Positions 55 through 27,578 of a DNA stretch of 34,421 nucleotides are shown here, piece after piece. This DNA comes from a bacterium (GTDB lineage: Bacteria > JACRDZ01 > JAJRWM01), in the NCBI GenBank assembly GCA_024276815.1, contig JAJRWM010000118.1, positions 1 to 34,421 of the forward strand, read 5' to 3'. Every line of letters begins with the position of its first letter. Position 1 is the stretch's first letter. The notes below the pieces were generated by a model. That model worked only from the letters and a program-made list of their open reading frames with translations, was not told where the DNA came from and did not search any database. The position numbers were made by a program, and so were the translations under genes.

Positions 55-1812
55 TCACACATGCCGTCTGGAAGGTTTTAATTCGCGGGTTTTGGCGTTC
101 TGTCTCTTGTTTCTCGTGTTCTGGGGCTGGATCAGTTCCCGCTGTTCTTTTCGTTCCCGGTACGTTTTTGGTACATAGATTTTCTCGCCGGTAAAAGGAT
201 CCCGCTCCGTATAATACAAGCAGGTCGATAACGTCATCGGGGGGGGCGTGAAATCCTGGATCTGCTCCGGCCTGATCCGCCGCGCCTTGAGGTAGTTTGC
301 CAATTCACGGGCTTCATTCCTGCCGCAGCCCGGATGAGCGGTAATAAAATAATTGACCAGGAATATTTTTTTGCGGGATTTTGGGTTTGTCTTCTGAAAC
401 TTGGCCACGAATTTCTCATAGACCGAATGGGGGGCTTTATTCATAATCTTCAGCACCTTATCGGAAACATGCTCCGGCGCTACTTTCATCAAGCCGCTGA
501 TATGATGCCGGCAAATCTCTTCGAGATACTTATCTGATTCATCATCAACCAGCAGATCGAAACGGAAACCGCTGCCGATAAAAACATGCTTAATCCCCGG
601 GACGTTCCTGATTTTGCGGTACAGGCTCAAACACTTTTTGTAATCTATCTTTAAATTCCGGCATTTATCGGGAACCAGGCATTTTCTGTTTTCACAAAAA
701 CCCCGCTTTTCCCAAAGCGAACAACTCGCCTGGTACAGGTTAGCCGTCGGCCCGCCGATGTCGGTGATCGTTCCCCTGAAGTTATCGTCATTAGCCAACT
801 CCCGGGCTTCCGCCAGGATTGACTGACCGCTGCGGCTCTGGACGATTCTCCCCTGGTGGAAATAAAGCGCGCAAAAAGAGCATTCGCCGGCGCAGCCCCG
901 ATGGGAAATGAGAGAAAACCGTACCGTCTCCAGTCCCTTGACGCCCCCCAGTTTGTCATAAACGGGATGCCATTTCCTGGTGAAGGGCAGTTCATAAATT
1001 TTGTCCAGTTCGGAAACGTCAAGGATTATGGGAGGAAACTGAACGACATATCTTGAATCATGCCGCTGAACCACCGGAATCGAACCAACCGGATTCATGC
1101 CGGCGTAAATCTTCCTGAAAGCCTCGTTAAAAGCGACTTTACTTCCTTTCACTTCCTCGAAGGAGGGGATAATTTCATATCCGCCAAGACCGGCAAGACT
1201 TTTTCTGACAACCGCGGTACCCTTAATATTATTTAAGGAATCCAGGCTTTCACCGTTGGCCAGCCGCCGGGCAATTTAAACAATCGGTTTCTCGCCCATA
1301 CCATATACCAGAAGATCGGCTTTGGCGTCCAGCAGCAAGGAACGTCTCACCTGGTCTTGCCAGTAGTCGTAATGAGCGAAACGCCGCAGGCTGGCCTCAA
1401 TTCCGCCCAGCGCTATGGGTACGCCGGGGAAGGCTTCCCTGACCCGGTTGGCATAGACGATCAGCGAACGGTCCGGCCGCTTGCCCGGCAAGCCCCCGGG
1501 ATAATAATCATCGACCCGGCGCGGTCTTTTGCTGGCGGTATAATTGGCGATCATCGAGTCGACATTGCCCGAAGTCAGGCCAAAGAAAAGGCGGGGCCGC
1601 CCCAGCTTTTTAAAATCACCCGGATTACGCCAGTCGGGCTGAGCGATGATACCAACTTTGTACCCTTTAGCTTCCAGAACCCGGCCGATGACGGCGACGC
1701 CAAAGGACGGATGATCGACGTATGCGTCGCCGGAGACAAGAATGATGTCGCACTCGTTCCAGCCCCGCTCTCTTAAATCGCTTTTGGAAATTGGCAGAAA
1801 TTTATTCTTCAT
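55..1812 (-). CDS. ygiQ: YgiQ/UPF0313 family radical SAM protein, interrupted by one in-frame TAA at 1276-1278
   Basis: N-part has [31 protein letters not shown]-part has [11 protein letters not shown] (CxxxCxxC), [14 protein letters not shown]. The two ORFs share a frame and the gap is open ([15 protein letters not shown]), giving 585 aa in total. Confidence 0.9.
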
Positions 1813-1898
1813 CAGGAGTATGATAACTCATTCCGTAGTTAAAAAATTAAAAAGATGAATTGACCGGCTCGCAAAACGCTCCAAGCTTGCAATCGTTC

Positions 1899-3512
1899 CT
1901 AAAACAGATTGGCGGGAATAACCAGCTCGGGACTTATTTCTCTTACTTTTTCTAACGCCCGCTCAACTCCGTTTCTGTTTCCCGACTGACCAGACTTTTC
2001 GGCCCGCAACAAGTAAATACGGCTGTAATAGCGGCGGACAACCATTTCCGGATACTCGCGTGCCGCTCGTGAGCCGGCAAACAGTCCCCGCGTTACCAAA
2101 TGCTTTTTCCAAGATTCATCGCTATCGCTTGCCAAGCCGTTAATCGCCCTAAACAGTAACCCTTTGTTGATAAAATCGACGCCGCCCCCCGGCTTGGTCA
2201 GGAACAGGGGCTGATTCGGGTAATCCCTGCGATAGCGGGAGTAGGCGCCGGGCGAAGCCTCTAATACCGTAAGCTTCGAGCCGCGGCTTTCAACCAGCTT
2301 GAAATACATTAACGGAAATAATTCGTAGATACCGGAAACCATGACCACCCCCCGTCCCTTAGTAATCTCAGTCATATTGCGACCGAAGTCATAGGTCAGA
2401 TAAAACGCCCGGCGATTGACGAGTACCCCGTTCCGCCACAGTGTCAGCGCCAGGACAAGCAAACCGAGCGCAAACGCGAAACGGGATTTTTTTCCCGAGA
2501 GATACATTAAACCGCCGGCGGCGAAGAAAAAGAGAATGACATAGGCTACCAGATAATAAGGGCCGACAGTAAAAACTTTAAGCGGGCTGAAAGGGAAACG
2601 CAGGATGAGAATAATCGCCAGAGAGTTCGCTAAAAAAAGGTAGACCGTTATTAACAGCCACCGCCGCTGATGCTTAAAGAGCCAGAACAGCCCCAGGCCA
2701 GCGAGGATCAGCGTCAGCGTTGTTCCCTGCTCAGCCAGTTTTTTCAGGAAATCGCCAATAAACCGCCGCTTCTCTTTAGCCGTAACTTCGTGGCTGAACT
2801 CGATCAAGCTGAATTGCCGTCGTGAGAGCATCCGACCGGCGCCGCGCCAGGTGGCCGGCGAATAACGCCAGCTGACCTGGGGATTGCCGCTGCCCAGAAC
2901 CGGCAGATAAAGATACACCATCAACCCCAGCAGGACCAGAAAAAGACTCAGAACAATTTTCTTCAGGACAGTCCCTACAGCCCGTTCGCCAGTGAAAACA
3001 AAATATATCAAAGGCGCGAAGGTTATTATCAGATAGTGATTAGCCAGTCCCAGTCCCAGGTAGAACGGCAAAGACCGGCGGTTCCTCTTGTTTAAAGTTG
3101 AAAGAATAATAAGCGCGATAACGCCGTTGAGCAGATAAACCTCCGCTTGCAAGGCCTGGCTCCACCAGAGCCGGCTTACCCCTAACAGAGCCGCGCCCAG
3201 AATTGAAAGCGGAAAATTGATCCCGAACCGGCGCAGCAACCCGCAGAAAATAACGACGCCGATGACGCCGATCAAAACACCGGACAGATTTACCCTGAAG
3301 GGGATACTGCCGAGGGGCAGGTTGATCAAGATTCTGTTGATTAACGTTACCAGCGGGTAACCCGGCGGGTGATTGATGCCCAGGGTGAAGGCGGCCGAGA
3401 TGAACTCCCCGCTGTCCTCAAGGTAAATCGTGGGACACAGGGTTTTTAAATATACGCCCAAGAGCAGGTTTGACGCAATAACCAGACAAAAGCTAGCGAG
3501 ATTTTTTTTCAT
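1899..3512 (-). CDS. DUF2723-domain (TMEM260-like, GT-C) multi-pass membrane glycosyltransferase
   Basis: Motif EDSGEFISAAFTLGINHPPGYPL, then AEVY and GLGLANH, many hydrophobic segments; likely start MKKNL at 3512, overlapping the upstream paralog. Confidence 0.8.
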   Translation of the reverse strand: MKKNLASFCLVIASNLLLGVYLKTLCPTIYLEDSGEFISAAFTLGINHPPGYPLVTLINRILINLPLGSIPFRVNLSGVLIGVIGVVIFCGLLRRFGINFPLSILGAALLGVSRLWWSQALQAEVYLLNGVIALIILSTLNKRNRRSLPFYLGLGLANHYLIITFAPLIYFVFTGERAVGTVLKKIVLSLFLVLLGLMVYLYLPVLGSGNPQVSWRYSPATWRGAGRMLSRRQFSLIEFSHEVTAKEKRRFIGDFLKKLAEQGTTLTLILAGLGLFWLFKHQRRWLLITVYLFLANSLAIILILRFPFSPLKVFTVGPYYLVAYVILFFFAAGGLMYLSGKKSRFAFALGLLVLALTLWRNGVLVNRRAFYLTYDFGRNMTEITKGRGVVMVSGIYELFPLMYFKLVESRGSKLTVLEASPGAYSRYRRDYPNQPLFLTKPGGGVDFINKGLLFRAINGLASDSDESWKKHLVTRGLFAGSRAAREYPEMVVRRYYSRIYLLRAEKSGQSGNRNGVERALEKVREISPELVIPANLF

Positions 3513-26104: not shown

Positions 26105-26162
26105 TTTTAAAAACTTCCTCCTCGCTCTTGTTAAAACTTTAATCATAACATGTTAAATCTAT

Positions 26163-27578
26163 TTAGGAAATAATTAACTTTTTATTTTTTTTCATCCGCC
26201 GCCGCCGCTGAGTCGAGTCAATCTTCAGCAGTTTGCGGTACTTGCCTACGGTGCGCCGGGCGATCTGCACGCCCTCGCGCTGTAAAAGGTTGGCTATCTC
26301 CTGGTCGCTGAGTGGCTTGGCGTCTGTCTCGGCCTCAATGATATGACGGATCCGGTCCATAACGCTTTTAACCGCCACTTCGCCGTTTTCACGTTTCAAG
26401 CCGCGGCCGAAAAAGAATTTCAGGGAAAACAGACCCCGTGGGGTCTGGACATATTTTTTCCGGGTAATACGACTGACCGTCGTTTCATGAACCCCGATCT
26501 CTTCCGCGACATCCCGCAAAGTCAAAGGCACCAGACGCGTCACCCCGAAATCAAAAAATCCCCGCTGCGCCCGCAAAACAGATTCCAGTACATTATATAA
26601 AGTGCTGTGTCTCCTCTTCAGCCCGTCCATCAACTGGCAGGCGGCTTGATACTTCTCTTCCAGAAATTTGCGCTCTTCCTTGTTCAACTCCTTTTTCTGA
26701 CCCAGGAGCTTGCGGTAAAAGGGATTTATCTTCAAGCTGGAATGCCAGTTCTAGTTGATAATTATCTTGTAATCGCCGTCTTCTTCCACGATCTCGGCGT
26801 CGGGACTGATGTAATAGCGACAAGGATCCAGAAACTCCTGGCCGGGATGAGGATCGAGAGAAGTGATCTGGTTCACCGCTGCCATAACTTCCTTTTCATC
26901 CCGTTTAAGCTTGCGGGCGATGTCCTGGTAGCGATGAGCCGCCAGCTCTTTCAGGGTCACGTTGAGGATCTTCTCTATGAGGGCGTAATTCTCCGGATAT
27001 TTTACTTCCGCCTGGATTAAAAGACATTCCACCAGGTTGCGGGCGGCAATCCCGGGCGGACCAATCCGCTGAATGGCCCGGACGACTTTTTCAATCGTCG
27101 GCGCGTCAGCTTCCGTCACCTGTTCCAGTTCCTCCGACGATAACCTTAAATAACCCTCGTTATCCAGGTTACCCAGTATCTTCCAGGCGACTTCCTTTTC
27201 CCGCGGACTTAGTTTGCTGATCTTGATTTGCCATTCCAGTTCATCCCTGAGACCCGGCTCCCGACTTGGCTCGGCAATGTACATGTCCTCCGGAAGCTGC
27301 GAAAAAGGCTTATGGGTCGGGGACTCTTCGAGATAACGCAGCCATTCCTCGACGTCCTCAAGCTCATTCTTCTTTTGCGCGGGCTGACGACTTTCCAGTG
27401 AGACCAGGTCATCAGGCGGGGTTTCCCTTTCCAGTAGCGGATTATTCTCCAGTTCCGTCTGGATCCGGTTCTCCAGTTCCAGGAGGGAAAGCGGTAACAG
27501 TTCAATTAACTGCCGCAACTGGGGCGTCATGATCAATTGCTGGGTTAACTTCTGCTCCAGAACCAACTTCAATGACAT
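26163..27578 (-). CDS. rpoN: RNA polymerase sigma-54 factor, interrupted by one in-frame TAG at 26751-26753
   Basis: QQLIMTPQLRQ, ENNPLLE, LDNEGYL, GIAARNLVECLLIQ, PLTLRDVA, HETTVSR, PLSDQEI, ARRTVGKYR; both ORFs in one frame, 471 aa in total. Confidence 0.92.

Follow-up and report, generated by a model that had tools for sequence, protein, structure and literature searches.

The window analysed here is a contig of 34,421 nucleotides (nt) in its full length (JAJRWM010000118.1 of GenBank assembly GCA_024276815.1; contig C40 of the source draft, which is labelled G000), in which three unrelated genes, ygiQ, ptsI and rpoN, are each interrupted by a single in-frame TAA or TAG. The three genes and their stops are located as follows, together with two genes of the window that end in the ordinary way.

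55..1812, minus strand: ygiQ-type radical SAM gene, full length, with one TAA read through
1276..1278, minus strand: in-frame TAA in ygiQ (TTA on the plus strand)
15298..17079, minus strand: ptsI (enzyme I of the phosphotransferase system, PTS), full length, with one TAA read through; its terminator TAA overlaps the ATG of pgi (TAATG)
16099..16101, minus strand: in-frame TAA in ptsI, at a Glu/Asp column
26163..27578, minus strand: rpoN (sigma-54), full length, with one TAG read through
26751..26753, minus strand: in-frame TAG in rpoN, at an Asp/Asn/Glu column
5777..8733, minus strand: pyk and eno, ended by ordinary TAG and TAA

An earlier note, made from the sequence alone, had described these stops as lying in otherwise intact genes at positions compatible with glutamate. 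The first part of this description was borne out: there is a single stop per gene in ygiQ, ptsI and rpoN, the frames are otherwise open and of full family length, and the Pfam domains continue across each stop. On YgiQ, the Radical_SAM_N profile aligned at positions 1-174 and then at 176-301, skipping exactly one position at the stop, and on PtsI the PEP-utilizers_C profile aligned at 3-61 and then at 63-291, again with one position missing at the stop. In RpoN, Sigma54_CBD is followed by Sigma54_DBD, the domains continuing past the TAG. The ygiQ-type gene showed 64% and 63% identity to its orthologues in the same-phylum genomes G002 and G004 over 566 and 564 residues, respectively, and these orthologues carry no stop. 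Compatibility with Glu held well for two of the three sites. The ygiQ column was occupied by E in all three same-phylum loci, and the ptsI column by E in 80 of 120 homologues (D 31, A 5, N 2, Q 2) and in 59 of 80 metagenome loci (D 19, Q 1, A 1). The rpoN column in 10 relatives contained D seven times, N twice and E once; Glu is thus permitted at this site, yet it is not the usual residue there.

The window is a normal bacterial gene cluster, with lptA-lptB-rpoN-hpf-ptsN-hprK-rapZ, a mannose-type PTS, HPr-ptsI-pgi, eno, pyk and pyrG. TAA and TAG still terminate other genes in it, as had been noted: the terminators of the 30 minus-strand window genes comprise 15 TAA, 8 TAG and 7 TGA, and TAATG overlaps are present at both ptsI/pgi and pyrG/kdsC. 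The truncated open reading frames (ORFs) of ygiQ, ptsI and rpoN (275, 178 and 256 aa, respectively) are recorded from an NCBI source as singletons, on a contig of 34,421 bases. Therefore, the three window stops belong to the deposited assembly. Elsewhere in the window (1899-5379, minus strand) lie two adjoining paralogous genes for TMEM260-like putative O-mannosyltransferases, whose ORFs as listed overlap by 83 bases (3493-3575).

Internal stop codons across the source genome

The source genome is a 2.39-Mb draft in 246 contigs with 49% G+C, 91% completeness and a CheckM-type contamination estimate of 2.97%. A 141-base overlap is common to many of its contig ends, which we read as a sign of short-read de Bruijn assembly. 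The genome is the sole member of its family among the genomes compared, in a phylum with six species genomes; the nearest PtsI in a set of 5.8 billion proteins was 72% identical, and the best in JGI metagenome contigs 56%.

Internal stops were surveyed by tblastn of 2,560 ORFs of at least 100 aa, from 2.22 Mb of the same-phylum relative G004, against the whole source draft. High-scoring segment pairs (HSPs) were retained if they had at least 100 bits and the best coding score of the six frames. This survey replaced a first scan for same-frame ORF pairs, which gave 597 candidates, or 232 after a best-of-six coding filter, and was too unspecific because many of the pairs were merely adjacent genes. 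In a pilot against 250 kb of the distant genome G009, alignments crossed stops, and the residues were too scattered for use.

The retained 1,064 HSPs covered 274,645 distinct aligned codons and contained 84 internal stops, namely 55 TAA, 24 TAG and 5 TGA. All five TGA sites are doubtful, with a local identity of at most 0.31 and positions at alignment overshoots or in weak matches, and the 41 well-aligned sites (local identity of at least 0.35) consisted of 23 TAA, 18 TAG and no TGA. The proportion of TAA to TAG at internal sites, 55:24, follows that of GAA to GAG in the source genome, 11,416:7,736. In the reverse test, in which source ORFs were compared with G004 DNA, 993 HSPs contained 15 stops, all clustered and at a local identity of at most 0.39; these are run-through into intergenic DNA. 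At a local identity of at least 0.4, a hand count of the first-pass listings gave 24 internal stops in the source genome versus none in G004 by the same tblastn test. The internal-stop pattern exceeds chance. The affected share of Glu positions was 55 of 19,207 (0.29%). Extrapolation from the aligned third of the genome gives a genome-wide total of about 140 sites or genes.

A residue of G004 was aligned at 70 of the 79 TAA or TAG (TAR) sites: E at 31, K and D at 8 each, I and N at 5 each, P at 3, Q and L at 2 each, and M, T, Y, R, S and V at 1 each. Ordinary Glu codons of the source genome pair in G004 with E, K, D and N at frequencies of 0.44, 0.13, 0.095 and 0.05, respectively. Over the 70 sites, Glu was favoured by 35.2 log-likelihood units over Gln, 35.8 over Asp and 43.8 over Lys. 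When the 52 first-pass sites were fitted as a mixture of those residues whose codons a single substitution turns into TAR, the Glu share was 0.96, and a combined Ser and Tyr share of 30% was worse by 8.1 log units. As the residue profile at the TAR sites matches that of ordinary Glu codons, the stops look like Glu codons. The genome-wide tabulation of residues opposite internal stops that the earlier note had called for, run here against G004, thus extended the Glu-position pattern from the window to the whole genome, with Glu the best assignment by 35 log units over 70 sites.

The identities of 38 read-through genes were obtained from Pfam with X placed at the stop. The stops lay inside single Pfam domains in cysteinyl-, seryl- and aspartyl-tRNA synthetases (CysRS, SerRS and AspRS), in TrmD, MurF, a GlmU-like enzyme, acetolactate synthase, HPPK, SpeD and MogA, and in ribosomal proteins L1 and S1, an ABC ATPase and others. 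In a ClpB/ClpC-like ATPase, the stop directly follows the Asp of LLD-IEKAH, which is the position of the Walker B glutamate. Exactly one stop was found in 43 of 889 aligned genes in the first pass, and two in none. Along the genes, 41 stops fell into successive quintiles as 7, 9, 12, 9 and 4; across contigs, stops occurred in proportion to aligned length (P = 0.077). Their median distance to a contig end was 3,292, versus 3,243 for ordinary Glu codons (P = 0.70), and a comparison of more with less conserved genes showed no depletion of stops in the conserved ones (P = 0.36). Genes on both DNA strands carry internal stops, and no sequence motif was found around the 28 best sites. In their distribution, the stop sites look like a random sample of Glu codons. 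The stops are thus genome-wide, at Glu positions, TAA or TAG only, one per gene, and in essential genes.

Proposed decoding of UAA and UAG as glutamate: mechanism and contrary evidence

The reading that we favour, although we hold its chance to be close to but short of even, is that the source organism reads a fraction of its UAA and UAG codons (UAR) as glutamate via a suppressor that lies outside the assembled bin. We infer that the stops may be translated, that Glu would be inserted, and that a tRNA would be responsible. The agent would most probably be a Glu-charged suppressor tRNA with the anticodon UUA, and possibly also one with CUA, whose gene either belongs to the portion of the genome missing from the assembly or is carried by an unbinned element, while release factors 1 and 2 (RF1 and RF2) would go on terminating at UAA and UAG. 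G>T changes at the first base of GAA and GAG (GAR) would turn Glu codons into UAA and UAG, with G>T-biased mutation as the supply. Such changes would be near-neutral and so persist, and every other nonsense change would be purged by selection. Rather tentatively, since we think it somewhat less probable than its negation, this free-living-type bacterium of a very small phylum would then represent the 'ambiguous intermediate' of stop reassignment, in which UAA and UAG are terminators and also, via a Glu-accepting suppressor outside the bin, Glu codons, which would allow essential genes to accumulate G>T changes at their Glu codons.

This decoding has serious weaknesses. UAR would be rare as a sense codon, at about 0.3% of Glu positions and in 43 of 889 aligned genes, and the distribution of sites is so even that no trace of selection shows. 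Efficient ochre suppression is harmful or costly in model bacteria. The gene ends that matched the orthologue C-terminus (n = 299) comprised 139 TAA, 60 TAG and 100 TGA; TAA or TAG therefore end 199 of 299 checked genes, which excludes a reassignment of the whole code, as had already been concluded from the window. A second stop followed within five codons after 35 of the 139 TAA, 10 of the 60 TAG and 32 of the 100 TGA ends, with no excess of back-up stops, and no sequence context was found that separates internal from terminal stops. RF1 (PVT and GGQ motifs) and RF2 (SPF and GGQ) both scored over their family cut-offs and are canonical, so that the altered release factors for which a search had been proposed were not encountered. 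The RF2 gene prfB (C149:395-1435, plus strand) retains the classical +1 frameshift site at an in-frame TGA. UGA therefore acts as a stop here, and RF2 probably still regulates its own synthesis.

The tRNA complement likewise speaks against it. A tRNA-Glu with a UUA or CUA anticodon had been named as a thing to look for, and neither anticodon was present among the 36 tRNAs detected by aragorn or the 33 detected by Infernal (RF00005) in the 91%-complete assembly. Relaxed aragorn thresholds yielded three 'tta' candidates and one 'cta' candidate, which were rejected as malformed, with broken stems. The draft has a single, normal tRNA-Glu(UUC), and no tRNA-Glu paralogue was found in it. One gltX was found in the source genome (C107:15494-16930, minus strand) versus two in each of four same-phylum relatives, the second match in G001 being below the family cut-off. 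Several standard tRNAs, including those for Asn, Tyr and Trp, are also missing from the draft, and as the draft is 91% complete, the absence of a suppressor tRNA from the assembly does not show its absence from the organism. tRNA-Gln(CUG) and tRNA-Glu(CUC) were not found in the draft either. An identical 81-base stretch at two contig ends (C120:32-112 and C243:6791-6871), called tRNA-Arg(tcg) by aragorn, has mismatched stems and was not found by Infernal; it was rejected as malformed and is probably a repeat. tRNA-Gln(UUG) is present in two tandem copies, one base apart (C140:3693-3767 and 3873-3947, plus strand).

A sense meaning that is inferred for a standard stop should find support in a consistent species phylogeny and a cognate tRNA, according to a preprint (10.64898/2026.04.02.715157). 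For the source genome, neither support is available; as it is the only genome of its family among those compared, no sister genome shares its TAR sites. Some individual sites also do not fit. The TAA in PhoH (C219:11769, minus strand, locus L177) stands at the Q of the conserved ILDEAQN, where both G004 and the solved homologue 3b85 have Q, and judged by this alignment the site is not Glu-derived. A conserved gene region at C8:6150-6827 (plus strand) contains three in-frame stops in a span of about 700 nt, a TAG opposite E, a TAA opposite P (local identity 0.81), and a TAG opposite S (TCG>TAG would be a C>A change). Nowhere else were several stops found together, and the region may be a true pseudogene. 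Frameshift-like HSP pairs numbered nine, at seven places among about 900 aligned genes of the source genome (C198, C171, C127, C190, C244, C140 and C192), with one such pair in G004 by the less sensitive reverse test. The PhoH site, the C8 stops and the seven frameshift-like places are probably ordinary lesions.

The contrary evidence also includes the state of the sequence itself. Seventeen pairs of contig ends overlap by 343-496 bases with about 99.3% identity (e.g. C2/C50, C8/C186, C12/C127 and C155/C245). Over 6,967 positions they show 48 mismatches, of which 39 are G:C↔T:A. By hand count, each of the three codon positions is affected, with 15 synonymous changes and many radical ones (V/F, G/C, W/L, D/Y, R/S); read on the sense strand, G↔T accounts for 24 and C↔A for 15. 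The mismatches are spaced by less than 141 bases, and it is apparently at clusters of such variants that the contigs break. A codon-blind G>T/C>A process is therefore present in the data, and it may stem from damage that entered the ends at low coverage, or from polymorphism in a lineage that lacks MutY.

Alternative origins of the internal stops

The earlier note had rated an artefact or a mutator as at least as likely as recoding, and had pointed to a G>T signature, each Glu-to-stop change being G>T at the first base. That signature is real at the contig-end overlaps, where G:C↔T:A dominates and radical changes are included. A codon-blind G>T/C>A process, whether error from 8-oxoguanine (8-oxoG)-type damage at low coverage or a G>T mutator, would have Glu as its commonest target, as GAA and GAG outnumber all other codons that a single G>T change turns into a stop, and the source genome yielded no MutY-class match over the cut-off. 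We nevertheless regard it as an improbable origin of the stops, since such a process is blind to strand and frame and the stops are restricted to in-frame, sense-strand GAR. Acting at the Glu rate, it would be expected to produce 8.3 GGA>TGA, 11.8 TCR>TAR, 11.1 TAC>TAA and 5.1 TGC>TGA changes, about 36 versus the 55 from Glu. The non-Glu nonsense candidates seen were one Ser-aligned site, one Tyr-aligned site and the five doubtful TGA, and the Tyr-aligned site is a TAG, which C>A does not give from a Tyr codon; this amounts to no more than about 6 candidates. With the first-pass counts, the probability of three or fewer non-Glu stops with 23 expected was 2e-7. A version confined to G>T on the sense strand would give 6.2 TGA among the 41 well-aligned sites, where none was seen (Poisson probability of about 0.002 by our own arithmetic). 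Nor do the stops become more frequent towards contig ends. The earlier note had also suggested a loss of mutM or mutY, which was not upheld: fpg (mutM) is intact (C60:17523-18323, minus strand; 277.6 bits versus a cut-off of 203.3), and the lack of a MutY-class match over the cut-off is common to all five phylum genomes searched, which have only Nth-like matches of about 70-80 bits and include relatives without such stops. Among these five (the others being G001, G002, G004 and G005), fpg exceeded its cut-off only in the source genome. Counts of D>Y, G>C/W and G>V relative to G004 were 344 versus 357 in reverse, with no excess, but this test is confounded by the lower G+C of G004 and was given little weight because the base composition of the genomes differs. 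Taken together, these results indicate that a codon-blind G>T/C>A process cannot have made the in-frame stops.

As the non-Glu nonsense routes are missing, the remaining process is confined to in-frame, sense-strand GAA and GAG. With genes on both DNA strands affected, a chemical or optical sequencing error cannot know the sense strand, whereas selection through translation can. An artefact of an unrecognised kind, acting on Glu codons or sense-strand GAR during data generation, consensus building or in-silico handling before deposition, in an organism that really has GAA and GAG, is unlikely in our judgement, although it is a strong rival to partial decoding because neither a suppressor tRNA nor a changed release factor was found, gene ends show no adaptation and the sites are so even. 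They behave as a uniform random 0.29% sample, with no selection by gene position, conservation or codon usage, and the disagreement of the overlaps in a draft of 246 contigs indicates that base-level quality is poor in places. Against such an artefact, we know of no sequencing, assembly or polishing step that senses coding strand or frame, and the stops show no concentration near contig ends. If GAR>TAR changes had been made on both strands, 7.5 Ser>stop changes at Y|TCR would be expected and one was seen (P of about 0.005). The 16S gene is clean in this respect, with nine private deviations of which one is G>T, where about 1-2 G>T are expected by our own arithmetic, although in so short a gene the count is not decisive.

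Contamination or pseudogenes frequently underlie the inference of recoded stops from assemblies, according to PMC8629427, and both this paper and 10.64898/2026.04.02.715157 name contamination as what usually lies behind falsely called reassignments of stops in assemblies of this kind. That the stops are real but untranslated nonsense alleles, recent pseudogenes in a decaying or hypermutating population, is in keeping with the frameshift-like pairs, the three C8 stops opposite E, P and S, and the PhoH TAA at a conserved Q, yet we consider it very unlikely for the set as a whole. CysRS, SerRS, AspRS, TrmD and MurF could not all be null in a living cell, all 43 affected genes have one stop each with intact and conserved downstream parts, and nonsense alleles should be indifferent to the prior residue, whereas 96% fit Glu. 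Contigs of an organism that uses UAR as sense, e.g. a ciliate, could in principle have entered a bin with a contamination estimate of 2.97%. However, the sites occur on dozens of contigs, their numbers following the aligned length, and lie in bacterial operons beside TAA- or TAG-ended genes on the same contig, such as lptA-lptB-rpoN-hpf-ptsN-hprK-rapZ and the mannose-type PTS. Given this even spread and operon context, contamination by a recoded eukaryote is excluded for practical purposes. Recoding to selenocysteine (UGA with a SECIS element) or pyrrolysine (UAG with pyl genes) was set aside without a search for sel or pyl genes, as 55 of the 79 TAR sites are TAA and Glu is the residue aligned to them. 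On balance, the earlier note's view that an artefact or mutator is at least as likely is not supported, the artefact reading is weakened, the Glu assignment is supported, and the observation itself is confirmed and much larger than first noted.

Relation to known systems and implications

Peritrich ciliates have a nuclear code in which UAR specifies Glu. The same nuclear code is described for Blastocrithidia nonstop in part of PMC12153298. The source genome resembles these in having in-frame UAA and UAG at Glu positions, and in Blastocrithidia UAA is both Glu codon and terminator, as it would be here. The known cases, however, are eukaryotic; they possess genes for the cognate tRNA-Glu(UUA/CUA), their eRF1 is altered, and most of their genes contain in-frame UAR. 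In the present bacterium, about 0.3% of Glu positions and about 5% of aligned genes are affected, a search for a cognate tRNA found none, and both RF1 and RF2 have canonical form. Bacterial nonsense suppressors include the amber and ochre suppressors of laboratory strains and the suppressor tRNAs of recoded phages. They share with the decoding proposed here the partial reading of UAA and UAG in the presence of active release factors, and the tolerance of stops where the inserted residue suits. Unlike the present case, the natural and laboratory examples are not known to go with an accumulation of in-frame stops in essential genes across a genome, and no suppressor gene was found in the source assembly. 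To our knowledge, there is no case of a Glu-inserting nonsense suppressor in bacteria.

The bacterial stop reassignments treated in the relevant section of PMC8629427 all concern UGA, which is given there as true of all known cases. Reassignments of UGA to Trp or Gly resemble the present case in having been detected from in-frame stops in conserved genes, but here UAA and UAG are affected, and UGA is a pure stop with the RF2 frameshift site intact. A full-text literature search found no paper on UAA or UAG read as an amino acid in bacteria. The pattern is the signature that classically marks the reading of a stop codon as an amino acid, here Glu, and it occurs in a genome where these codons still end genes. 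It suggests either a stop-to-glutamate reading not known in bacteria or an error process not yet described.

If the pattern is an artefact, it mimics codon reassignment to the standard of residue-inference tools, which is relevant to code screens of metagenome bins. How a code change starts without wrecking the proteome is posed as an open question in a passage of PMC8629427. If the genome is real, an early state of such a change would be seen directly, with the release factors intact, UAA and UAG still the main terminators, and about 140 Glu codons (by extrapolation) already converted, catalytic ones included. If partial decoding as glutamate is true, it would be the first sense reading of UAA and UAG, and the first stop-to-Glu reading, in bacteria.

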